A stretch of 64,000 nt of DNA, taken from NCBI GenBank assembly GCA_035629395.1, contig DASPHZ010000079.1, positions 693 through 64,692 on the forward strand. The letters are read 5' to 3'. The DNA is from Thermoanaerobaculia bacterium. Lineage in GTDB: Bacteria > Acidobacteriota > Thermoanaerobaculia > Gp7-AA8. Both the position numbers and the translations under genes were made by a program. Positions 14,188 through 63,000 of this stretch are shown here, one piece after another (position 1 is the first letter of the stretch; each line of letters begins with the position of its first letter). The notes beneath the pieces are model-generated. The model made no database searches and was not told the DNA's origin. It saw only the letters and a list, made by a program, of their open reading frames with translations.

Positions 14188-14736
14188 GTGACGAGCGTCG
14201 CACGCGTCGGCTTGACCGCGGTGCATACTTTCCGCGTGAGCGACGACGATCGCTATTGCTCCAACTGCCGCGCCGAGCTTCCGCCGAAGGCCGACTCGTG
14301 TCCCGCGTGCGGCGTCTACGCGGGCGATGTCTTCGACGGGAAGATCCGCCGCGAGAAGAAGCCGTCGAGCTGGGGCTTCTGGGTATTCGTGCTGCTGCTG
14401 GCGATGGGCGCGGCGGGCTATGCGATGTGGATGAACGTGCGGCCGGAGAGGGAAACGCCGCGTCAGACCGCGCCGGAAACACGAGTCGTGAAAGACCGCC
14501 CCGGCGGCGCGAGGAAAGCGCGCGGCGCGAGCGTCACCGAGGCCGAGGCCATTCGCCTGGCGCGGCGCCATCTCGTGACGGCGAAGAACATCAAGAACGA
14601 TTGCCTCGCGCTACTCAGCGCGGGCGACCGCAAAGGCGCGTACGTCTTCAACGTTTACGATCGCTGCGCCGAAGTCCGCCTCGGCAAATGGCGCGTCGAC
14701 GCGAAAACGGGCGAGGTCAGCGCGGCCAGTTCGTGA
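14188..14736 (+). CDS. zinc-ribbon membrane protein with PepSY-like C-terminal domain
   Basis: CSNC..CPAC ribbon, one TM helix (WGFWVFVLLLAMGAAGYAMW), and an extracytoplasmic tail. An alternative GTG start lies at 14236. Confidence 0.55.
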   Translation: MTSVARVGLTAVHTFRVSDDDRYCSNCRAELPPKADSCPACGVYAGDVFDGKIRREKKPSSWGFWVFVLLLAMGAAGYAMWMNVRPERETPRQTAPETRVVKDRPGGARKARGASVTEAEAIRLARRHLVTAKNIKNDCLALLSAGDRKGAYVFNVYDRCAEVRLGKWRVDAKTGEVSAASS

Positions 14737-17323
14737 TCACGACGAGCGGCTCCTGCGCCGCGGACGCGCGCCGCGAAACGATCGCCTCTTTGTCGTTCGA
14801 CAGCAGCACCCAGTCGACCGCGCGCAGGCGAAAGTACGTGCGCACGGTGCCGATCTCGAATCCGTTCGCGGTCGACACCGGCACCGACATCAGCGTCTGG
14901 TCCTTGCCGATGTAGAACAGCGCGCTGCCGTCCGTCGACCAGCGCGGTGAGTCGCCGATCCCGGTCGAGACCTGCCACTTCGAGCCGTCGGGCGGGAAGG
15001 GCTGCACGTAGATCTCCGGCTGTCCCGCTTCGTCGGACTGGTACGCGATCCATTTGCCGTCCGGCGAGAAGCGTCCGGAGATCTCGTTGAACTTCGTCAC
15101 CGTGAACGGCGTGATCCGTCTCGTGGCCAGATCGATGGTGACGAGATTCGACCGCGCATCGACCGTCCACATCTCGGCCAGCAGCGTGCTGCCGTCGCGC
15201 GACCAGTCGACGACCTCGATGCCGAGCTCGCGCGGCTCGGTGATGACCTGCTCCCCCGTGCCGCTCGCGAGCCGCACGCGGATCGATTGTCCGAGAGGCG
15301 TTTGCAGCGTGTAGGCGATGCGCTTTGAATCGGGCGACCACACCGGCCCGAGCTCGTCGCCCGGTTCGAACGTCACGCGCGTGCTCACGCCGCGTTTGAG
15401 GTCGTACATCCAGATGTCGTTGTTGCGCAGCGTACCGACGATGCGCTGCATGGCGAGGCGGCCGTCGTCGCGGGAGAGGTCGAGGTTCACGCCGGTGATG
15501 GCGAGGTCGCTCTCCGTTCCGGTCGTGAGATCGAAACGCGAGAGCAGCGTGTCGACGAAGGACGAGCGGGGATGGTAGGTGAGGATGCCGTCGTTCGACG
15601 CGGAGAACGCGGGCGCCGCGTATTGCGGATTGAAGTCGACGTTCGCCGCGACCACGAACGCTTCGCCGTCTTTCGTGCCGGAGTCGGCGTCGAATGGTTG
15701 CGCGTAGAGGTTGTCCTCGTGCGTGTAGAGCAGGTAGCCCGGCTCCGCGTAGTACGCCGGCGCCGCGATATCGAGCACACGCTGCACCTCCGGGCTGTCG
15801 ACCGACCCGAGGTAGACGCCGGTGTTCTCGGGAACGACGCTGAGGGCGAGAAAGAGAAAGCGCTTCCCGTCCGGCAGCCACGATGGACGCCAGTGTCCCG
15901 TCTCCTTGCGTGCGGCGTCGAGCTTTGTGACGGTCGTGACCGCGCCGCCGCTTGCGGCAATGCGGCGGATCGGCCCGAACGGCGTCGATGCGAAAAGGAT
16001 CGTGCCGTCGCTGCCCCACGCGCCGCCGCGGCTGTCGCCGACGGCCGTGATGGTGGCGATCGCGGAACTGGCGACGTCGAGGCGCTGCAGCTTCGCCTGC
16101 GCGAAGAATCCGAGCTGACGGCCGTCCGGCGACCAGAACACGTCGTACGCACCGTCGAGCCCGCGGAGCGGTTGCAGCACCGGCGAGTCGAGCGTGCGCA
16201 TGTAGAGCTGCTGCTGTTCGCGGCCGGGGCCGAGCATGGCCACGAGGCGTTTGCCGTCCGGCGAGATCGTGCCGGGCGCGTCGACGGAGTTGTACGTGAG
16301 GCCCGGCGGCGGCGCGATGTGCAGCACGGTGCGCGGCGGCGGCTGATGGTTCGCGCGATCGTACAGCGCCCACGCGATGGCCGCGACGGCGATGAGTCCC
16401 GCGGCGATCCACCCCGCGTACGCGTTGCGCTTCGCCTGCGGCAACGGGATCGTGCCCGAGGGGAGGGAGAGCGCTTCGAGCTCGAGCCGGACGTCGTGCG
16501 CCGATTGCCAGCGCTCCTCCGGATCTTTGCGCAGGCAGATGGAGATGATGCGTTCGAGCGCGGGCGGCGTCACGGGACGAATGGCGCTGACAGCCTGCGG
16601 CTCGGCGGCGAGGATGGCCGCGATGAGGCTCGCGCGGCTCTTGCCGTTGAACGCGCGGCGGCCGGTGAGCATCTCGTAGAGCAACGTGCCGAAGGCGAAG
16701 ATGTCCGTGCGCGCGTCGACGGGCAGCCCCTCGAGCTGCTCCGGCGCCATGTACTGGAACGTGCCGATGATCGTCCCTTCTTCGGTGAGCGGACGCGCCA
16801 GGGTCGGCGCGGGGTGGGTGTTGCTGTCGGGCCCGATCCCTTCGACCTCCACGCTGCGCGCGAGGCCGAAGTCGAGGAGCTTCGCGCCGCTGCGCGTCAG
16901 CATGACGTTCCCCGGTTTGAGGTCGCGATGGATGATGCCGCGGCGATGTGCTTTGTCGAGCGCGTCCGCGATCTCGATGGCGGTGCGCAGGGCCTCGTCG
17001 AGCGACAACGGCCCTTTGAGGAGGCGGTCCGCGAGCGTCTCGCCTTCGAGGTGCTCCATGACGAGGTAGTCGATGCCGTCGTGGTGGCCGACGTCGTGGA
17101 GGGTGCAGATGTGCGGGTGCGTCAGCGCGGAAATGGCTTTCGCCTCCCGCTCGAAGCGGAGGCGCAGTTGCGCGTTGCCCGCGAGCGCCTGGGGAAGGAC
17201 TTTGACCGCGACGGTGCGGTCGAGACGCGTGTCGCGCGCGCGATAGACCTCGCCCATGCCGCCGGCACCGAGCGGCGCGAGGATCTCATACGGCCCCAGC
17301 CGGGCACCCGGCGCGATGGTCAT
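14717..17323 (-). CDS. Ser/Thr protein kinase with TM helix and TolB-like beta-propeller
   Basis: GAGGMGEVY, HRDLKPGN, DFGLAR and APE motifs. One TM helix is followed by repeated SPDG/WSPDG propeller blades. Confidence 0.9.
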   Translation of the reverse strand: MTIAPGARLGPYEILAPLGAGGMGEVYRARDTRLDRTVAVKVLPQALAGNAQLRLRFEREAKAISALTHPHICTLHDVGHHDGIDYLVMEHLEGETLADRLLKGPLSLDEALRTAIEIADALDKAHRRGIIHRDLKPGNVMLTRSGAKLLDFGLARSVEVEGIGPDSNTHPAPTLARPLTEEGTIIGTFQYMAPEQLEGLPVDARTDIFAFGTLLYEMLTGRRAFNGKSRASLIAAILAAEPQAVSAIRPVTPPALERIISICLRKDPEERWQSAHDVRLELEALSLPSGTIPLPQAKRNAYAGWIAAGLIAVAAIAWALYDRANHQPPPRTVLHIAPPPGLTYNSVDAPGTISPDGKRLVAMLGPGREQQQLYMRTLDSPVLQPLRGLDGAYDVFWSPDGRQLGFFAQAKLQRLDVASSAIATITAVGDSRGGAWGSDGTILFASTPFGPIRRIAASGGAVTTVTKLDAARKETGHWRPSWLPDGKRFLFLALSVVPENTGVYLGSVDSPEVQRVLDIAAPAYYAEPGYLLYTHEDNLYAQPFDADSGTKDGEAFVVAANVDFNPQYAAPAFSASNDGILTYHPRSSFVDTLLSRFDLTTGTESDLAITGVNLDLSRDDGRLAMQRIVGTLRNNDIWMYDLKRGVSTRVTFEPGDELGPVWSPDSKRIAYTLQTPLGQSIRVRLASGTGEQVITEPRELGIEVVDWSRDGSTLLAEMWTVDARSNLVTIDLATRRITPFTVTKFNEISGRFSPDGKWIAYQSDEAGQPEIYVQPFPPDGSKWQVSTGIGDSPRWSTDGSALFYIGKDQTLMSVPVSTANGFEIGTVRTYFRLRAVDWVLLSNDKEAIVSRRASAAQEPLVVITNWPR

Positions 17324-17407
17324 GTGTGGGGGAGTGTAATCGCTTCGCCGAGGGAGAGACGACGCGGAGCTTCCGGCGGTCGGCGCGGTCGGCCCCGTCG
17401 GCTCCCT

Positions 17408-48863: not shown

Positions 48864-49575
48864 GGTGCTGCACGATCTCCGCGTTCACCGCGGCCGCGTG
48901 CGAGATCGGTCCCATGTGCCCGACGCCTTCGAAGATTTTGAGACGCGCGTCCGGCAGCGCCTGCGCGAGTTTCTGCGCGACGCGGCGCGAAGCGAGCGGC
49001 GTGAGCTCGCCGCTCATCACGAGCGTCGGCGCGGTGATGGTGCCGTAGGTCTCGCGCGAAGTGCGGTCGGCGCCGAGGGACATCACTTCCTGGAAGAGCT
49101 TCCAGCCTACGGCGCGGAACGCGTTGCGCGTCTCCTCGTTGAGGCGATCCCACGCGCCGCGGCCGTTCCACCACTCGACGAAGGCTGCCAGCCACGGATC
49201 GCCGCTCCATTCGCGGCTGACGTTGTCCAATGTCGCACGCGCGTCCGCGTCTTCGACGTCGTCGAGCGCCCCGAATGCGACCGGCTCGTACGCGGCGATC
49301 GAGCGCACGCGCTCCGGGTGGCGCAGCGCGAGTTGCAGCGCGAGGAAGCCGCCGTACGAATGTCCGACGAGATGCACCGGCTCGGCGAGCAGCGTCTCGA
49401 GATAGTCGAGATCCTGGCGGAAGTGAAACGGCTCGCCGTCCGGCCACGGGGTGCCGTATCCGAGCAGGTCCGGCGCGATCACGTGAAAGCCGGGCGAGAG
49501 CATCTCCGCGAGCTTGCGCCACTGCCGCGAAGTGAACCCGCCGCTGTGAATCAGAACAGCCGTCTGCCTGGTCAT
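48817..49575 (-). CDS. alpha/beta-fold hydrolase
   Basis: Nucleophile elbow GHSYGG and a C-terminal GHMGP His motif. It overlaps the convergent DUF3224 gene by 47 nt. Confidence 0.8.
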   Translation of the reverse strand: MTRQTAVLIHSGGFTSRQWRKLAEMLSPGFHVIAPDLLGYGTPWPDGEPFHFRQDLDYLETLLAEPVHLVGHSYGGFLALQLALRHPERVRSIAAYEPVAFGALDDVEDADARATLDNVSREWSGDPWLAAFVEWWNGRGAWDRLNEETRNAFRAVGWKLFQEVMSLGADRTSRETYGTITAPTLVMSGELTPLASRRVAQKLAQALPDARLKIFEGVGHMGPISHAAAVNAEIVQHLTEVSTRTSRSASPL

Positions 49576-49597
49576 CCCAAGATGCTAACCTCGACTC

Positions 49598-49789
49598 ATG
49601 GATCGCGAGCTCAATAAAAGCCTCATCATCGGTATCGCCCTCGCCGGCATCGCGCTCGAGCTCACCGCCATCGTGCTCCTCGCCTCGAAGCGCATCACCA
49701 TGCCCGTGGCCACGCCGCTGATCATCACCGGCATGTTCCTGGCGTTCGTGCCGGTCTTCGTCGTGGCGCGGCGCGCGCGGCGGAAGTAG
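49598..49789 (+). CDS. small two-TM membrane protein
   Basis: 63 aa with two hydrophobic helices, a basic tail RRARRK, and strong GC3 bias. Confidence 0.5.
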   Translation: MDRELNKSLIIGIALAGIALELTAIVLLASKRITMPVATPLIITGMFLAFVPVFVVARRARRK

Positions 49790-50028
49790 CTGCGCGGCGA
49801 TCAGCCGGATGGTTCCGCCGCAGCGTCCGGCGAAGAATGCCGGCGCGTGACCCCGCGCAGTCTGGCGCAGACTTCCGCCCGCGGCAGCGGCGCCGGGAAA
49901 TTGCCGGCGATCCACATCGGAAGAAGTGGTACAGGGCCGCGCGCAAGGTGCGCACCCAGTGCACACCTGTATGGCCACGCGGTGCTCAGCGCATGACCGC
50001 AAACTACTGAAAATAAAAGTCGATTCCG

Positions 50029-50044
50029 TGGCACCTCCGGTGCT
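50029..50044 (+). promoter_or_regulatory. sigma-54 (-24/-12) promoter TGGCAC-CTCCG-GTGCT
   Basis: Perfect -24 hexamer and exact GG-N10-GC spacing. An AT-rich tract lies immediately upstream. AAGGAGG-N4-ATG (50082) lies 38 nt downstream. Confidence 0.65.
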
Positions 50045-50081
50045 CTGCAGCGGCTGCGCTGTACGACGAAAAGGAGGAATC

Positions 50082-51743
50082 ATGAAACGACTTTTAGCGG
50101 CCCTGTTCCTGTGTGGTGCGGCGAGCGCCGTCGCGATGCCGACCCCCGTCTCCGACCTGCCGGTGTCGTGTACGTTCAACAGCGGTTCGGCGTGCTCCAA
50201 GACTTACGACTCGACGAGCGGCGTCTGCCGGACCGTGCGCTTCGCGACGAGCGCGGGCGAGATCCAACTGCTCGTCTGCGACAAGACCGATCATTACGAG
50301 TTGTACCGCCAGTCCTATCCCGCGAATATCACGTTCAAAGCCTGTGCTGGTGGCGGATCGGTCGATCAGCTCGCAGGTTTTTCGAGCTTCACCAGCACGA
50401 CGCTCGGCAGCGGCTGCGGTGCGCCTCTGCCACCAGGAGACGACGATGCGACGGCGCTCGTGAATCCGAGCTCCACCGGTTTTGCGAATGAAACCCGCGC
50501 CGCCAATCACGCGCGTCTGCTCGACGTGTGGTGGAACAACGGCAACGTCATCCAGCACTTCGCGTGCAGCTACGGCACGTGTGCCTGGGTGCCGTGGTAT
50601 TCGGTCAGTCACTCGTGCAATCTCGGGGAATTGAAGCCATTGTCCGACTGCGGCGGCAGCGGCAGTGCGACGCTGCAGGACAACTGCATGGTCACCGACG
50701 AGTTCTCCCAGGTGTTCCTGGCCACTGCACAAGGCACGAACGCCTCACGAGTGCAGGAACTCTTCAATACCCTGCGCCTCCTCGCCAGCGGCAACAATGG
50801 CGGACTGTTCGAAACGCTTCCGGCCTGGCGGGCACGCCGTACGAACACGACGGTCAGCGTCGCTTCGTCGGGCGCCAATCGCGATTCGGCCAGTGACGCC
50901 GACGCACGCATTCTTCTCGCGTTGTCCATCGCCGCCGCCTCGCCGTATTTTCCGGAGACGGAGCGCACCGCCTATCGCAACTACGCGAATGCAATGGCGG
51001 CCGATTTCCTGCAGCACGATTTCCGCCGCGAGTGCCGCACGGGCCGCAACGGCGTACAGATCTGCGACTGGCTCGCGTCCGGCGGCAATGCGGCCAATGG
51101 CCAGCTCGATTACGATTTCTTCACCTACGCGGGCTATTTCGGCGACGCGACCATCGCGCTGCTCGCCGCGTACAAGGCGCTCGGCCAGTCCTCGTATCTC
51201 GACGCCGCGCGCGACACGGTGAACGCGTATCTCCTCGCCTCCGACTTTACGACGAGCTTCCGCGTGCCGGCGAAATCGTTCCGCTGGGATACGTCCGTTT
51301 CGCCGCCGCGTTCCGCGTGCAGTCCGGGAAGCTGCACCGGCGCCTGGGACGATTCCGATGCCCCGCGTGCCACGAGCATCTGCAAAGCAACCTATTACGC
51401 ATCGCTCCTGGGCGTCTCACTGCCGGGCGATCTCGATGCGTATTGCACGGCATGGCGCAACCGCGGCGGACTCACGTCCAATACGTACAAGATGCAATAC
51501 GCATTCGACGGCACACCGCAGGGGACGTTCCAGGACGGGCCGTATGAGAACGGGCTCGCGGCTTCGCTCGATTTTGCATACGCGGCCGGCGACCTCGGCA
51601 CGCGTCTCGACCGCGTCGGCACGAAGTGGGATGCGGCCAACAATCGCTGGTACGGGCAGACCTGCGTCGGCGTTTATCGGAATGCGTTCTTCACGACGAA
51701 CCTCGGCAGTGCCATCGGGCGCGACCTGAACGTCTGGAAATAG
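50082..51743 (+). CDS. secreted Cys-rich protein with glycoside-hydrolase family 8-like signature
   Basis: Signal peptide MKRLLAALFLCGAASAVA. ASDADARILLAL approximates the GH8 PROSITE pattern A-[ST]-D-[AG]-D-x2-[IM]. The family call is tentative. Confidence 0.7.
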   Translation: MKRLLAALFLCGAASAVAMPTPVSDLPVSCTFNSGSACSKTYDSTSGVCRTVRFATSAGEIQLLVCDKTDHYELYRQSYPANITFKACAGGGSVDQLAGFSSFTSTTLGSGCGAPLPPGDDDATALVNPSSTGFANETRAANHARLLDVWWNNGNVIQHFACSYGTCAWVPWYSVSHSCNLGELKPLSDCGGSGSATLQDNCMVTDEFSQVFLATAQGTNASRVQELFNTLRLLASGNNGGLFETLPAWRARRTNTTVSVASSGANRDSASDADARILLALSIAAASPYFPETERTAYRNYANAMAADFLQHDFRRECRTGRNGVQICDWLASGGNAANGQLDYDFFTYAGYFGDATIALLAAYKALGQSSYLDAARDTVNAYLLASDFTTSFRVPAKSFRWDTSVSPPRSACSPGSCTGAWDDSDAPRATSICKATYYASLLGVSLPGDLDAYCTAWRNRGGLTSNTYKMQYAFDGTPQGTFQDGPYENGLAASLDFAYAAGDLGTRLDRVGTKWDAANNRWYGQTCVGVYRNAFFTTNLGSAIGRDLNVWK

Positions 51744-51764
51744 GAGCCGTTTCCGGAGGCCGGT

Positions 51765-54461
51765 ATGATTCCGTGCCTCCGGATGTCCAGCGCCAAAACA
51801 CCGCCGATCGGGCCACTCGATCCGATGGACGCAACGCCGCTGCCGTTGCGCCCGGGGGATCTCCTCGCGCAACGCTACGAGATCCTCCGGCTCCTCGGCA
51901 GCGGCGGGTCGGCGTATGTCTACGCGGCACACGATCACCGCATCGGAATCGACATCGCGCTCAAGCTGCTGCGCGGCGGCAACCGATCGGAGATCGACGT
52001 GGAGCGGACGCGACGCGAGGCGGAATTCTCGCTCGCGTCCGCGAGTCCGCATCTCGTGCGAACCTTCGACCTCGTCGAGACCGAGGGCCACGTGTTCCTG
52101 ACGATGGAGCTCGTGGGAGGAGGCTCGCTTCGCGATCGTCTGCGTCGCGGTCCACTGTCGGTCGAGGAAGTCATTCGGCTCGCGGGAGAGATCCTCGAAG
52201 GTCTCGTCGCTCTCCACGCACACGACATCGTGCACCGCGACCTGAAGCCGGGAAACCTCCTTCTGACGGAAGACGGGCATGTGAAGTTGTCGGACTTTGG
52301 CATTGCGCGCCGGTGGACTGACGACACGCGCATCACGGTCACGGGCCTGCCGGTCGGTACCGTCGATTATCTGTCGCCCGAACAGGCCGCCGGCGCGGAC
52401 GTCGATCCGCGGGCGGATCTCTATTCACTGGGGATCGTGCTGTTCGAGATGCTGACGGGCCGCGTTCCGTTCGAAGCGTCGAGCGCCGTCGGCGCGATCG
52501 TCATGCGGTTGAATCGCGCAGCCGCGGATGTCCGCGCGCTGCGAGGCGACACACCGCGATGGCTGGCGCGTTTCGTGGCGCGTCTGCTCGAACGAAATCG
52601 TGAAGAACGCCATCCCTCGGCGGCGACGGCTCTGGATCACCTTCACAGAAAACGCGGCCGGATGCGGTGGCGTCCCCTGACTGTCGCGATCGTTCTCGCG
52701 CTGTTCCTTGCGTTATCGGCATTCGGTTTCTGGTGGCGGAGACCCTCGGGCGGAATCGACATGGTGATGAACGGCGACTGGGGCATTCGCGCCGTCGATG
52801 CGAACGGCGATACGTTGTGGACCCGCCCGGACAGTCGCACGCCCGCGGTGACCATGGTCCGCCGCGGCGCAATTCCGGAGATCGCGGCGGTTCTCGCGCC
52901 GTCACCCAGCCTTTCCACGGCACCGCGTTTTGCGCGTACGCTGTCGTTTCTCGACGTTCGGACGGGGCGTGTACTGCGGACGCGGAATCTCCCCTGGCCG
53001 GCGCATACATTTCCCGAGCATTCGGAGTTTTTCGGGATTGCGCAGGTAGTCGCACACGATCTCAATCACGATGGCTACGACGAAGTCATCGTCAGCTACG
53101 TGCACAATTACTTTCCGTCTTACACCGTCCTGTACGACCTGCGGCGCGATGAAGCGCGCCTGCTGTTCATCGCCTCCGGTCATCACCGCGTGGAGGGTGC
53201 GGCGGATCTCGACGGCGATCGCGTGGACGAACTGGTTCTGTCAGGCACCGCCAACAAGCAAGGCTGGTATGTCGGCATCGCCGCCATTCGCATTCCGTTT
53301 CCTGCGGAAGATTTGCCGTACAGCACGACGGCATTCACGCCGGACCGGTTCGAAGTACCGCGAATGCGCGCTCTTCTCTGGTATGCGCTCTGTCCCCCGG
53401 GCGGCCTTCGCCATCGCGGAGTGATTGTGGATTCCGGGAGACGGATCATCCGCGTCGAATACATGCATCGACCTCCGGTCGAGCTGACGTTCGACGGGTT
53501 TCCATCCGGCCCATGGACGCCCGGCACGGGGACGTCCGCACAACGACAGGCTGCACGGGATCGCGCCTACGAACATCTGCGCGACGCACAGCGCTTCACC
53601 ACGAGCGGACAGGGCGATGCTGCCGTGGAGCGGGCCGAAGCCGCGCGTTCCCTCGCGGAAGATGCAGGAGATCCGACACTCGCGGAATGGAGCGCCCGCG
53701 TAAAAGGTGTCGCGCTCGTCCATGCGCGTCGCTTCGACGATGCGTCCCGGCTGTTCACGCACCTCGCCGAAGGTTCGGAAGCCGCCGCCGATATCGCATG
53801 GGATGCGGGGAACGCATTGCATCTTGCCGGCAACCTGCCGGCCGCGGTGCAGTGGTATCGACGCAGCGTCGGGCGGGAGGGCTTGCCGGGTGTCGGGCGG
53901 CTGAAGTACGAGGCGCTGCAGGGACTGGTACTTGCCCTCGGCGAGATGGACCGATGGGACGACGCGGCGAAAGAAATCGACCGGTGGGCGGCCAGTTTTC
54001 CAAACGAGTCGACCGTTGCGGCGTCCTGGTTTCGTCACTTTCTCGCATGGCGCACGGGTCGCGTGGCATTCGCTCGCTACGATCCGGACGAGCCGATCGA
54101 CTGGTACCGATACTGGGCGCTGGAGATCCGGCTCGCGCTGAATGCCGAGCCGCTCGAGACGCTGCGGGCGATCGACGCCGATCGGGCACGCGCATCGGAG
54201 ACGCGGCGGGTGCTGCTGCTCGCGCGTGCCGAGGCACTGCGGCGAAGCGGACGGTTGGACGAGGCGCTGCAGGTCGCGCGCGAGGCCTATCTCGCATTGC
54301 GGGCCCGCCGGCTCGAATCGGCGCTCGATCGCGGCCACTTCGATCTCGCCGCGGAACGGCTCGCGAAAATCGCCGAGCTGACAGGCCTGCATGCGGAGGC
54401 TGCGCGCGTTCGTGCCGAGGCGGCGGCGTTGCGCTGGCACCCGACTGGAATCCCCCGCTGA
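51765..54461 (+). CDS. Hanks-type Ser/Thr protein kinase with TM helix, FG-GAP-like segment and TPR-like C-terminus
   Basis: GSGGSAYVY, HRDLKPGN, DFGIAR, SPEQ. TM helix VAIVLALFLALSAFGFWW. DLNHDGYDE and DLDGDRVDE motifs. Confidence 0.9.
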   Translation: MIPCLRMSSAKTPPIGPLDPMDATPLPLRPGDLLAQRYEILRLLGSGGSAYVYAAHDHRIGIDIALKLLRGGNRSEIDVERTRREAEFSLASASPHLVRTFDLVETEGHVFLTMELVGGGSLRDRLRRGPLSVEEVIRLAGEILEGLVALHAHDIVHRDLKPGNLLLTEDGHVKLSDFGIARRWTDDTRITVTGLPVGTVDYLSPEQAAGADVDPRADLYSLGIVLFEMLTGRVPFEASSAVGAIVMRLNRAAADVRALRGDTPRWLARFVARLLERNREERHPSAATALDHLHRKRGRMRWRPLTVAIVLALFLALSAFGFWWRRPSGGIDMVMNGDWGIRAVDANGDTLWTRPDSRTPAVTMVRRGAIPEIAAVLAPSPSLSTAPRFARTLSFLDVRTGRVLRTRNLPWPAHTFPEHSEFFGIAQVVAHDLNHDGYDEVIVSYVHNYFPSYTVLYDLRRDEARLLFIASGHHRVEGAADLDGDRVDELVLSGTANKQGWYVGIAAIRIPFPAEDLPYSTTAFTPDRFEVPRMRALLWYALCPPGGLRHRGVIVDSGRRIIRVEYMHRPPVELTFDGFPSGPWTPGTGTSAQRQAARDRAYEHLRDAQRFTTSGQGDAAVERAEAARSLAEDAGDPTLAEWSARVKGVALVHARRFDDASRLFTHLAEGSEAAADIAWDAGNALHLAGNLPAAVQWYRRSVGREGLPGVGRLKYEALQGLVLALGEMDRWDDAAKEIDRWAASFPNESTVAASWFRHFLAWRTGRVAFARYDPDEPIDWYRYWALEIRLALNAEPLETLRAIDADRARASETRRVLLLARAEALRRSGRLDEALQVAREAYLALRARRLESALDRGHFDLAAERLAKIAELTGLHAEAARVRAEAAALRWHPTGIPR

Positions 54462-54463
54462 CC

Positions 54464-55762
54464 ATGCTCAGCCTGGTCTTTCACGATGCGAGAACGCGAA
54501 CGCGTCATTCGCGCGCCGTCCCCGACGGCGAGGCGCACATCGGACGCGCGGAAGACAACGAGATTCCGCTGCCGTTCGACGAGAATCTCTCGCGCCGGCA
54601 TGCGCGTGTGACGAGGATCGGTCGCGCTGTTCGCATCGAAGACCTGCAATCGACGAACGGCATCCTCGTCGGCAGTGCGCGCGTGCCGTCCGTCGTCCTG
54701 CATCCCGGCGATGCGCCGGTGCAGATCGGCTCCACGTTCGTCACCATCGAAGAAGCGGATACGGGCGACCTCCTGCCCGCGTTTCCGGTGGAGCGCGCGG
54801 GAAATCCGGAACGTGCGAAAGCGACGCTGCCGGTCGACGACGATCGCTGCACGCTCGCCGGGCGGGGACTGCAGCGCGTGGTGCGCAAATCGGTGCAGAT
54901 GCAGCGCGTGGTCATGCAGGCGCTCGCATTCGCACGCCTCGCGCGTCCCGTGCTGCTCCTCGGCGAGACCGGCACGGGAAAGGAAGTCATCGCGCGGCTG
55001 ATTCACGACAACGGACCGAATCCGGGTGGGCCGTTCGTGGCGGTGAATTGCGCGACCATGACACGGGAACTGATCCATTCGGAGCTGTTCGGGATCGAGG
55101 ACGGCGTTGCCACGGGTGTGCGTGCGCGGCGCGGCTTCTTTGCGGAAGCCGAAGGGGGAACGCTGTTTCTCGATGAAATCGGCGACATCGACATCGAGAT
55201 GCAGGCCACGCTGCTGCGCGCGCTCGAGGAGCATGCGATTCGCGCGGCAGGGATGCGCCGGTCACGCACGGTGCGTCTTCGGGTGATCCTCGCGACGAAT
55301 CGCCGCGATCGCATTCGCGCCGATCTGTACTTCCGCTGCAAGCGGATCGACATTCCGCCCCTGCGCGAGCGGCCGGAGGATATTGCGAATCTGGCGCGCC
55401 ATTTCCTCGACGCGATCTGCCGCGAACAGAAAGTCCTGCCGGTGGTGATCAGCCAGAGCGCGGTCGCGCTGCTCGCGGCGCATCCGTGGCCCGGCAATGC
55501 GCGCGAATTGAACGGCGTCCTCGAAGACGCGGTCGTGCTGTTCGGACATGGAGGGATGCTGCACGCGGAGCACATTGCGAACGTCCTCGGTGACGCCGCA
55601 TTGCTGTCGCCGTCGTCGCTGGTCGATCGTCATGCGGCGCTCACGCGCGCCGCGGTCGCGGGCGCGTTGCGTGAGCACGACGGGAATCAAAGTGCCGCCG
55701 CGCGGGCACTGGGGATGTCGCGCAGCGGGATCCGCAAAGCGATGCGCCGATTTCAGCTCTGA
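54464..55762 (+). CDS. FHA-domain, sigma-54-interaction (AAA+) domain, Fis-HTH transcriptional activator
   Basis: FHA: GRAEDNEIPL...SRRHARV...STNGILV. Walker A GETGTGKE, Walker B LFLDEIG, PLRERPEDI, GNARELN. C-terminal HTH NQSAAARALGMSRSGIRKAM. The ATG lies 2 nt after the kinase stop. Confidence 0.9.
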   Translation: MLSLVFHDARTRTRHSRAVPDGEAHIGRAEDNEIPLPFDENLSRRHARVTRIGRAVRIEDLQSTNGILVGSARVPSVVLHPGDAPVQIGSTFVTIEEADTGDLLPAFPVERAGNPERAKATLPVDDDRCTLAGRGLQRVVRKSVQMQRVVMQALAFARLARPVLLLGETGTGKEVIARLIHDNGPNPGGPFVAVNCATMTRELIHSELFGIEDGVATGVRARRGFFAEAEGGTLFLDEIGDIDIEMQATLLRALEEHAIRAAGMRRSRTVRLRVILATNRRDRIRADLYFRCKRIDIPPLRERPEDIANLARHFLDAICREQKVLPVVISQSAVALLAAHPWPGNARELNGVLEDAVVLFGHGGMLHAEHIANVLGDAALLSPSSLVDRHAALTRAAVAGALREHDGNQSAAARALGMSRSGIRKAMRRFQL

Positions 55763-55766
55763 TCCG

Positions 55767-56492
55767 CTATTTCTTCTGCGCTGCCGCGATGCGCTCGCGC
55801 TGCTTTGCCGCCATTTCGACGAGCCGGCGCAATTCTTCGACCGGCTTCGGATGGTCGTCCACCTGCAGGCGCACCACCGTGTCGTTGTGCAGCCACACAC
55901 CACCGTTTTTCTTCACGATGAGCATGGCCGCGGATTGCATCCCGCGCGTGTCGCCGCCGGCTTTCTGTCCCGCTTCGAGTGCGGCCATCAGGCGCAGGGA
56001 GAGGTGGCCCTCCGTCGACTCGAACGCTTTCACCATGTCGTTGACGACCGCTTCGCCCGCGAGGATGTTGCCCTGCGCGGTGCAGTACACGCCGCCTTTG
56101 TGGCCCGCCCACGCGGACGCTTTCGGTCCGGTGAACGCGGCGTAGTTGCCCTTCGCATCCATGATCGCGAACTGGCGCCCGTGCTTCGTCCAGTCGTCCG
56201 GACGCGGATCGGGGTCGCTCTCCCAGATCGCCTTCACCGCGGCGGCAGGCGTGAGGCCAGCGCGCAGCAGGTCGAGTCCCTGCTGGCCGTAACTCACATC
56301 GACGATGGCCTGCGTGGCGACGACGCCCACCTCCGCCTCCGCCCACAGCACGCCATTGCCGACGGCGAACACGCGCGACTGCACCGCGCCACCGACTTCG
56401 CCGGTCTTCGGGTCGTAGCCGAGGATGGAGAAGGTGGCGACCTGGGCGAGGGCGGGGGTGGTGAGCAGCAGCAGCACGAGCAGTTTGCGCAT
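55767..56492 (-). CDS. DUF1028 (Ntn-hydrolase fold) family protein, secreted
   Basis: The signal peptide is followed by TFSILGYDPKTGEVGGAVQS, the hallmark DUF1028 N-terminus. Confidence 0.75.
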   Translation of the reverse strand: MRKLLVLLLLTTPALAQVATFSILGYDPKTGEVGGAVQSRVFAVGNGVLWAEAEVGVVATQAIVDVSYGQQGLDLLRAGLTPAAAVKAIWESDPDPRPDDWTKHGRQFAIMDAKGNYAAFTGPKASAWAGHKGGVYCTAQGNILAGEAVVNDMVKAFESTEGHLSLRLMAALEAGQKAGGDTRGMQSAAMLIVKKNGGVWLHNDTVVRLQVDDHPKPVEELRRLVEMAAKQRERIAAAQKK

Positions 56493-62880: not shown

Positions 62881-62897
62881 CGGCACCGTGGTTGCAT
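62881..62897 (+). promoter_or_regulatory. sigma-54 (-24/-12) promoter CGGCAC-CGTGG-TTGCAT
   Basis: GG at 62882-83 and GC at 62894-95 give exact spacing. The -12 element is perfect. It lies about 105 nt upstream of the poly-HAMP gene ATG. Confidence 0.55.
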
Positions 62898-63000
62898 AGC
62901 CCTCATCTCCAAGACTGATTGCCCTCGGGGCCGTCCAGCCGAACTCGCTTTCAAACACAACTGAATACGTCGTACGCTCCACGGAGGGAGAACCGCGGTT

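Follow-up and report, generated by a model that had tools for sequence, protein, structure and literature searches.

Within a 64-kb stretch of DNA from a Thermoanaerobaculia bacterium (contig DASPHZ010000079.1 of assembly GCA_035629395.1; all 64,000 nucleotides are hereafter called the window), we analysed a cassette of about 5.8 kb, promoter included, that appears to join a Hanks-type Ser/Thr kinase to sigma-54-dependent transcription. The window is part of a 66.5-kb contig of a soil-type metagenome, so that the host is probably a soil acidobacterium. The host genome has about 66% G+C, and the closest named relatives of the window are metagenome-assembled genomes (MAGs) of the Thermoanaerobaculia (Acidobacteriota). 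Three co-directional open reading frames (ORFs) lie on the forward strand: gene 1 (50082-51743), encoding an exported Cys-rich protein of 553 aa with a predicted (alpha/alpha)6 fold; a gene for a Hanks-type Ser/Thr kinase of 898 aa (51765-54461); and a gene for an FHA-domain enhancer-binding protein (EBP) of 432 aa (54464-55762). The latter is the single ORF of the whole window in which an FHA or a sigma-54 AAA+ domain was detected. Gene 1 and the kinase gene are separated by 21 nt, and the ATG of the EBP gene stands 2 nt past the kinase stop codon. Given this spacing, and since neither a sigma-70-type promoter nor a convincing terminator was found inside the unit when 49400-56200 was scanned, the three genes are likely to form one transcript, as the preliminary description of this stretch had proposed. 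The cassette is bordered by a convergent gene downstream and by a divergent or unrelated gene set upstream.

Gene 1 is preceded by a sigma-54-type -24/-12 element, TGGCACCTCCGGTGCT (TGGCAC-N5-GTGCT, 50029-50044, forward strand), and by the Shine-Dalgarno sequence AAGGAGG (50071-50077, forward strand), as the preliminary description had noted. The GG and GC of the element are exactly 10 nt apart, and its only departure from TGGCAC-N5-TTGCW is a G in place of the first T of TTGC. The element stands in an intergenic region, has the orientation of the three genes and ends 37 nt before the ATG at 50082; moreover, it is the sole match to TGGCAC-N6-TGCW on either strand of the 64-kb window, where 0.17 matches are expected. 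We compared seven independent loci, namely the window and six relatives (L003, L005, L009, L012, L244 and L245), whose gene 1 products are 50-81% identical and whose flanks are unrelated. The element is kept at the same position in all seven, about 40-54 nt before the ATG, with the variants TGGCACCTCCGCTGCT, TGGCACCTCCGTCGCT, TGGCAACTCCGATGCT, CGGCATCCGCGGTGCT and, twice, GGGCACCTCCACTGCT. Its GGCA...GCT core is invariant, whereas most of the remaining intergenic sequence differs among these loci. Transcription is predicted to start near 50054-50056.

An inverted repeat, CAGC-N6-GCTG (50045-50066), spans this predicted start in the window, L003 and L244, in the last with perfect 8-bp arms (TCTACAGC/GCTGTAGA); it is absent from the other four loci (L012, L005, L009 and L245). 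Where present, this repeat may serve as an operator. We considered a hairpin or another RNA element in the leader and rejected it, because the repeat straddles the predicted start and the short leader that would be transcribed is predicted to be unstructured. Elsewhere in the window, a second intergenic match of the -24/-12 type (CGGCACCGTGGTTGCA, 62881-62896, forward strand) lies about 104 nt upstream of GGAGGGAG and an ATG at 63000; the forward-strand ORF that starts there extends past the window end and contains tandem repeats that look HAMP-like by eye. This second match hints that the organism uses sigma-54 elsewhere as well.

Upstream of the promoter, a candidate enhancer, or upstream activating sequence (49948-49989, forward strand), is made of four boxes related to the 8-bp palindrome GTGCGCAC: GTGCGCAC itself at 49948-55, GTGCACAC at 49959-66, ATGGCCAC at 49971-78 and GTGCTCAG at 49982-89. 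Their starts are spaced by 11, 12 and 11 bp in the window, and they lie 47-81 bp upstream of the -24/-12 element. The boxes align across all seven orthologous loci, boxes 2 and 4 being nearly invariant, and most loci hold two to four near-matches in a stretch of 160 bp, the background density being about 1.3 per kb. In addition, the composite pattern TGCGCAC-N3-GTGCGCA occurs five times in the window when up to two mismatches are allowed (1.26 expected), and two of these occurrences overlap the enhancer boxes. An A/T-rich tract, CAAACTACTGAAAATAAAAGTCGAT (50000-50024, forward strand), separates the boxes from the promoter and retains a CTGAAAA-like core in relatives; it may act as an intrinsic bend or as an IHF-type site. 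The phased boxes are likely an enhancer, to which the encoded EBP would bind. Together with the conserved promoter, they suggest that this EBP acts at its own locus, which would amount to positive autoregulation.

The order of the three genes is kept in relatives with different flanks wherever the contig allows it to be read, in agreement with the expectation that the triad would be syntenic. The full triad is present in five loci (the window, L003, L005, L012 and L245), while L009 and L244 are truncated, their contigs stopping inside the kinase gene or shortly past its start. The pairing of kinase and EBP reaches further than the triad. In all eight loci with a readable downstream gene, a kinase of this sensor family is directly followed by an FHA-EBP, and these eight include three paralogues that lack gene 1 (L040-L042). 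The two genes overlap or abut in the relatives, and the sensor domains of the paired kinases are 38-60% identical. A further locus, L043, from another Acidobacteriota MAG, carries an unrelated pair of a kinase with TPR and an FHA-EBP with the sequence GVATGV in its L1 loop. Conversely, distant homologues of gene 1 occur without kinase and EBP, among them the archaeal ones and those of L011, L031, L034 and L036. Because the pair recurs without gene 1, and gene 1 occurs without the pair, the kinase/FHA-EBP dyad reads as a conserved signalling module, with gene 1 as the cargo of one clade.

Two further observations come from other loci. In L040 (10570-10660), a weaker sigma-54-like site, TGGAATCGAGATTGCA, lies downstream of the FHA-EBP gene and before an ORF with a signal peptide, and the cargo of other dyads may thus sit downstream of the EBP gene. 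In L011 (8001-11637, on a 491-kb contig), a distant gene 1 homologue with 35-39% identity is followed by a TPR-GGDEF protein, and a GG-N10-GC match, TGGCGTGACGCATGCA, stands 34 nt before its called start. The TPR-GGDEF protein may be an alternative signalling partner for the gene 1 enzyme family.

The kinase had been described as a membrane protein with FG-GAP-like and TPR-like parts, and this description agrees with our results. Its kinase domain (residues 38-292, 51876-52640) matches Pkinase (PF00069) with an E-value of 3e-50, and its catalytic motifs are intact and nearly invariant in the family (K67 in IALK, HRDLKPGN, DFG and SPE). From the single transmembrane helix at about residues 305-325 (52677-52739), residues 326-898 are predicted to lie outside the cytoplasm. 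This ectodomain (52740-54458) gives weak FG-GAP and TPR matches, and its AlphaFold model, with a predicted local distance difference test (pLDDT) value of 94, consists of a beta-rich FG-GAP-like part followed by a TPR solenoid. A fold search with the ectodomain returned generic propeller-plus-TPR architectures only and gave no clue to a ligand. The sensor family comprises 54 clusters, nearly all of them kinases, and those with a named organism belong to Thermoanaerobaculia or Acidobacteria.

The N-terminal tail of the kinase carries the motif T12-P-P-I (51798-51809). Among 46 aligned N-termini, 38 of the 44 full tails have T-x-x-[VILF] at the same place, most as TETV, the triad clade as TPTI and the window as TPPI. 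FHA domains classically prefer a hydrophobic residue three positions after the phospho-threonine, and the T-x-x-[V/I] tail is therefore a candidate FHA docking site. The start of the protein can be set in several ways: at 51765, giving 898 aa; at M21, giving 878 aa; or at 51783, as in orthologues that begin with MSSA(N/K). The window reads MSSAK at 51783, and the kinase might start there, to judge from these relatives; the only good Shine-Dalgarno sequence in the vicinity, GGAGG, serves the ATG at 51765.

The third gene encodes, as had been noted, an EBP with an FHA domain. Pfam places FHA (PF00498, E 5e-13) at residues 26-88 (54539-54727), Sigma54_activat (PF00158, E 1e-45) at 140-297 (54881-55354), AAA_lid_14 (E 3e-18), and HTH_8 (E 8e-9) at 401-430 (55664-55753). 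Walker A (GETGTGKE), Walker B (LFLDE) and the C-terminal Fis-type HTH are conserved. The window protein has the FHA pocket residues G27, R28, S43, H46, N65 and G66, which its clade conserves, so that phospho-threonine binding is predicted. Short-form EBPs also share two linker threonines, T100 in ETGD and T121 in KATLP, which are possibly alternative or additional phospho-sites. In the deeper-branching dyads, the EBPs are longer (540-600 aa; L005 12272-14008, L245 5964-7577 and L040-L043) and contain about 150 extra aa between FHA and AAA+ that are absent from the short EBPs of the triad clade (420-434 aa). A search for further loci that started from the EBP alignment was uninformative, because generic Walker motifs were chosen and unrelated EBPs were returned.

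What the preliminary description had overlooked in this protein is its non-canonical L1 loop, the loop that contacts sigma-54. In PspF and NtrC, engagement of sigma-54 requires the Phe of the GAFTGA motif. Here the loop reads G214-VATG-V219 (55103-55120), and GVATGV is found in every close orthologue; GVFTGV occurs in the triad orthologue of L245, and RVATGV, KAATGV and RIAAGV in the paralogues. A DNA pattern for FGI[D/E]xGVATGV was matched in at least 118 species (L124-L241), mostly Acidobacteriota, Myxococcota and Desulfobacterota. Among the 118 matches listed, about 14 carry an FHA domain, as judged with a custom FHA profile built from 12 sequences, and most of the others have a different N-terminal domain. 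This breadth argues that the GVATGV loop marks a widespread natural subfamily and not a decayed gene.

The product of gene 1 begins with a Sec-type signal peptide (MKRLLAALFLCGAASAVA, residues ~1-18), followed by a Cys-rich beta domain (~23-105) and an (alpha/alpha)6 barrel (~125-553), with many conserved cysteines. It gave zero matches in Pfam and NCBIfam, PF01270 being absent even at E 0.1-1, and a profile search of PDB sequences did not find GH8; a MupZ match in that search was spurious. An AlphaFold model built with 46 homologues (mean pLDDT 92) shows the N-terminal beta domain and the alpha-helical barrel. When this model was compared with the PDB by Foldseek, the top 24 neighbours were all GH8 (E 1e-8 to 1e-6, probability 1.0, target-normalised TM-score 0.58-0.72), including the P. 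putida endoglucanase, CMCax, CelA, a chitosanase, a xylanase and BcsZ. The family profile aligns sensibly with E. coli BcsZ in hhalign, with a weak E-value of 0.06; in this weak pairing, TDE207FSQ faces TSE55GQS, LPAW249 faces LPAWL and SASD272AD faces SASDGD, so that E207 stands opposite the catalytic E55 of BcsZ. The conserved residues of gene 1 are D206/E207, W249, D272 (in ASDAD), Y352 and D426/R429; of these, D206, D272, Y352, D426 and R429 stay invariant when more divergent family members are sampled. The secreted, Cys-rich and (alpha/alpha)6-like character first attributed to this protein thus stands, while its likeness to GH8 is limited to the predicted fold, the Pfam check for Glyco_hydro_8 being negative. 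It is probably an exported, glycan-active (alpha/alpha)6 protein whose nearest structural relatives, according to the model, are GH8 enzymes, without being a demonstrable member of GH8. We also considered that it might be a lipoprotein and rejected the idea: LFLC is unlike a lipobox, and its Cys is absent in orthologues.

The gene 1 family is small. It accounts for 66 clusters at 90% identity in a set of 5.8 billion proteins, and a profile search of 1.84 billion representative proteins gave 301 clusters at 50% identity, every one of the 150 matches listed being strong. It is distributed over Thermoanaerobaculia/Acidobacteriota and DPANN archaea (Woesearchaeota, Nanoarchaeia). Accessory extracellular modules (PKD, fn3, PEGA, Laminin_G and CarboxypepD_reg) occur in its relatives, and they were all that a Pfam scan of the divergent relatives returned. 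The beta domain, of about 75 aa (50148-50396 in the window), behaves as a mobile module: in the homologues of Woesearchaeota and Nanoarchaeia it follows the barrel on the C-terminal side, in one to three copies, and recurs in neighbouring ORFs (L007/L013 7644-7850, 10230-10448 and 10945-11520; L014-L038). A metagenome scan for gene 1 recovered only a duplicate of L012. In L012 (contig DASPMO010000147.1 of the Thermoanaerobaculia MAG SMAG_U12094), the reading frame of the gene 1 orthologue is broken near codon 30 (L012 7912-8001, equal to L243 6001-6090), with a stop after ...PASCL and homology resuming in another frame; it is either an assembly error or a pseudogene.

We interpret the cassette as a self-contained, autoregulated sigma-54 operon in which a Hanks kinase and an FHA domain take the places of the histidine kinase and receiver in a glnA-ntrB-ntrC-like layout, and we put the probability of this reading at about 0.65. 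In the mechanism that we infer from the domains, the predicted folds and the conserved gene order, promoter and repeats, the membrane kinase would use its beta-rich/TPR ectodomain to sense an extracytoplasmic cue; this cue is probably a glycan of the cell surface or the environment, or else the gene 1 product or its substrate. The kinase would then autophosphorylate, likely on the N-terminal T-x-x-[V/I] tail, on the activation loop, or on both. The FHA domain of the EBP, whose translation would be coupled to that of the kinase, would dock on the phospho-threonine, and docking would relieve auto-inhibition or help the AAA+ ring to assemble; the linker threonines of the EBP may be phosphorylated as well. 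The EBP would bind the GTGCGCAC boxes and remodel the sigma-54 holoenzyme at TGGCAC-N5-GTGCT into an open complex. The resulting transcript would yield the exported (alpha/alpha)6 glycan-active enzyme together with more kinase and more EBP, closing a positive feedback. The circuit from kinase to sigma-54 that the preliminary description had outlined is favoured by the synteny, the promoter kept in 7/7 loci, the phased boxes and the 8/8 pairing of kinase and EBP, all of them computational checks.

Several points weigh against this interpretation. The L1 loop lacks the Phe of GAFTGA. With E. coli RpoN as query, tblastn gave no match in the window or in 240 further loci; indirect hints of sigma-54 use are the numerous EBP genes of Thermoanaerobaculia MAGs and the second -24/-12 match at 62881. 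Near the paralogous kinase/FHA-EBP pairs, no intergenic -24/-12 match was found with up to two mismatches, so that coupling to sigma-54 is documented only for the gene 1 clade. The candidate enhancer is rather close to the promoter, and the scan of 49400-56200 revealed no basal promoter that could supply the first molecules of kinase and EBP. No PP2C phosphatase was seen among the Pfam-annotated genes of the window (~40-62 kb). Finally, only 37 of the 44 proteins compared across the wider family (84%) retain E207 of gene 1, next to an invariant D206, which makes the assignment of catalytic residues uncertain.

Some of these points could be accommodated if the EBP had lost its coupling to sigma-54 through the GVATGV loop and acted at the GTGCGCAC boxes as an activator or repressor of a sigma-70-type system, like VpsR, TyrR or the Rhodobacter NtrC, the -24/-12 element being served by another EBP or non-functional. 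Indeed, the loop is non-canonical in orthologues and paralogues alike, the paralogous pairs lack nearby -24/-12 matches, and EBP-like proteins without the sigma-54 contact residues, VpsR for example, act with other holoenzymes (PMC6158489). Against this stand a GGCA-N8-GCT core invariant in all seven loci, which is hard to explain without use of sigma-54, and the failure to find a sigma-70-like promoter at 49400-56200. Moreover, the Phe retained in L245 marks the loop as a drifting homologue of GAFTGA, its occurrence in at least 118 species suggests a functional subfamily, and the GVATGV-bearing DVUA0100 sits in operons predicted to be sigma-54-dependent (PMC4641369). We therefore regard loss of coupling as improbable. 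That the -24/-12 match arose by chance in a G+C-rich genome and the operon is an ordinary one seems scarcely credible to us: 15 of 100 shuffled windows did contain at least one TGGCAC-N6-TGCW match, but the match observed has the right position and strand, and its core persists in 7/7 loci while the surrounding DNA has diverged.

The link between kinase and EBP could also be less direct than in the autoregulated operon that we favour. The genes might be co-transcribed while the FHA domain reads a phospho-threonine on another protein or kinase, or only oligomerises. FHA domains can be promiscuous: in Mycobacterium tuberculosis, the same FHA proteins are substrates of several kinases (PMC6213207). 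In addition, the window does contain a second Hanks-type Ser/Thr kinase gene (14720-17407, reverse strand). We give this possibility little credence, since the kinase is directly followed by the FHA-EBP, often with overlapping stop and start, across sensor domains that have diverged to 38-60% identity, and since the conserved T-x-x-[V/I] tail fits FHA specificity. As for the cargo, gene 1 might encode no hydrolase at all but a different (alpha/alpha)6 catalyst, such as an epimerase or a lyase, or a non-enzymatic periplasmic partner that presents a ligand to the kinase ectodomain. In favour of such a role, a significant GH8 sequence match is absent, the BcsZ alignment is weak, and the family does not always keep the Glu that faces the GH8 acid. 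Among the 46 relatives, the weak Pfam matches also lean towards C5-epim_C (7/46) over Glyco_hydro_8 (3/46, best E 0.005), two families that both belong to the six-hairpin clan. However, all of the top 24 structural neighbours are GH8, the motif blocks TDEFSQ, LPAW and ASDAD have counterparts in TSEGQS, LPAWL and ASDGD of BcsZ, and the residues that do not vary are acidic or aromatic, which fits a glycan-active site. A function other than hydrolysis is thus rather unlikely.

The layout of the cassette has a close counterpart in the enterobacterial glnA-ntrB-ntrC (glnALG) operon, where the sigma-54 promoter glnAp2 and upstream sites precede genes for an enzyme, a sensor kinase and an EBP, and the EBP activates its own operon. 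Both share the order of promoter and activator sites, enzyme, kinase and EBP, with autoactivation being proposed here. In contrast to that operon, the kinase is a Hanks kinase with a large ectodomain and not a cytoplasmic histidine kinase, an FHA domain replaces the receiver, an exported (alpha/alpha)6 protein takes the place of glutamine synthetase as cargo, and the L1 loop is GVATGV. FHA-bearing EBPs have precedents too. Jelsbak, Givskov and Kaiser (PNAS, 2005) reportedly described them in Myxococcus xanthus and proposed a link between Ser/Thr kinases and sigma-54. The architecture of FHA, sigma-54 AAA+ and HTH is the same; here, in the Thermoanaerobaculia of the Acidobacteriota, gene arrangement ties the EBP to a single kinase and a single cis target promoter. 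We know of no partner kinase shown biochemically for the Myxococcus proteins.

A membrane Hanks kinase next to a regulator with an FHA domain also recalls PknH-EmbR of Mycobacterium tuberculosis, whose genes pknH and embR are adjacent. There, FHA-mediated phosphorylation of the regulator by the kinase is established (Molle et al. 2003, cited in PMC6213207). The same adjacency of kinase and FHA regulator was found in all eight readable loci and in L043, and signalling between the two is what we propose for our cassette. The targets of PknH-EmbR are cell-envelope polysaccharide genes. EmbR differs in being an OmpR/SARP-type sigma-70 regulator with a C-terminal FHA domain, without AAA+ or sigma-54, and in not forming an operon with its target. 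The GVATGV loop, in turn, was flagged in the literature searched only for DVUA0100, the type III secretion EBP of Desulfovibrio vulgaris Hildenborough, which lies in operons predicted to be sigma-54-dependent, is predicted to be autoregulated and was judged functional by its authors (PMC4641369). The loop is identical and sits inside a predicted sigma-54 operon in both cases, the evidence being computational in each; DVUA0100 differs in its long uncharacterised N-terminal domain and its type III secretion cargo, and neither an FHA domain nor an adjacent kinase is reported for it (PMC4641369).

With the GH8 enzymes BcsZ, CMCax and CelA, gene 1 shares the predicted (alpha/alpha)6 fold and similar motif blocks, and its signal peptide parallels the periplasmic location of BcsZ. 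It differs from them in falling below PF01270, in its extra Cys-rich beta domain and many conserved cysteines, in the non-invariant Glu, and in belonging to a family of its own, with about 300 clusters, that also includes DPANN archaea. The literature searched contained no characterised system that joins a dedicated Hanks kinase, an FHA-EBP, their own sigma-54 promoter and a single enzyme cargo. The initial claim of novelty was nevertheless overstated in view of the Myxococcus FHA-EBPs, the glnA-ntrB-ntrC order and the PknH-EmbR pair.

It is tempting to speculate further, and we do so tentatively, holding what follows to be possible more than probable. The dyad may represent a 'Ser/Thr two-component system' widespread in Acidobacteriota, in which sigma-54 activation would be switched not by aspartyl phosphotransfer but by a phospho-threonine on the N-terminal T-x-x-V tail of the kinase, read by the FHA domain. 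In that case, the Phe-less (V/A)A(T/A)GV loop would be the sign of a second AAA+ mode of sigma-54 engagement, and the cargo would found a new carbohydrate-active (alpha/alpha)6 family common to Thermoanaerobaculia and DPANN archaea.

Sigma-54 activators are textbook outputs of histidine-kinase two-component systems, and we know of no study in which the link from Ser/Thr kinase through FHA to sigma-54 was dissected using one defined set of kinase, activator and promoter. The cassette supplies a kinase with a candidate docking motif, an FHA-EBP, a conserved putative enhancer and promoter and a single cargo, so that the pathway would be reconstitutable. It also offers natural material on how an L1 loop without the 'essential' Phe may work with sigma-54. 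In addition, it points to an undescribed family of exported (alpha/alpha)6 proteins, which forms about 300 clusters at 50% identity and has members in both Acidobacteriota and DPANN archaea. Its main value would be as a minimal, testable model both for signalling from a Ser/Thr kinase to sigma-54 and for the non-canonical L1 loop.

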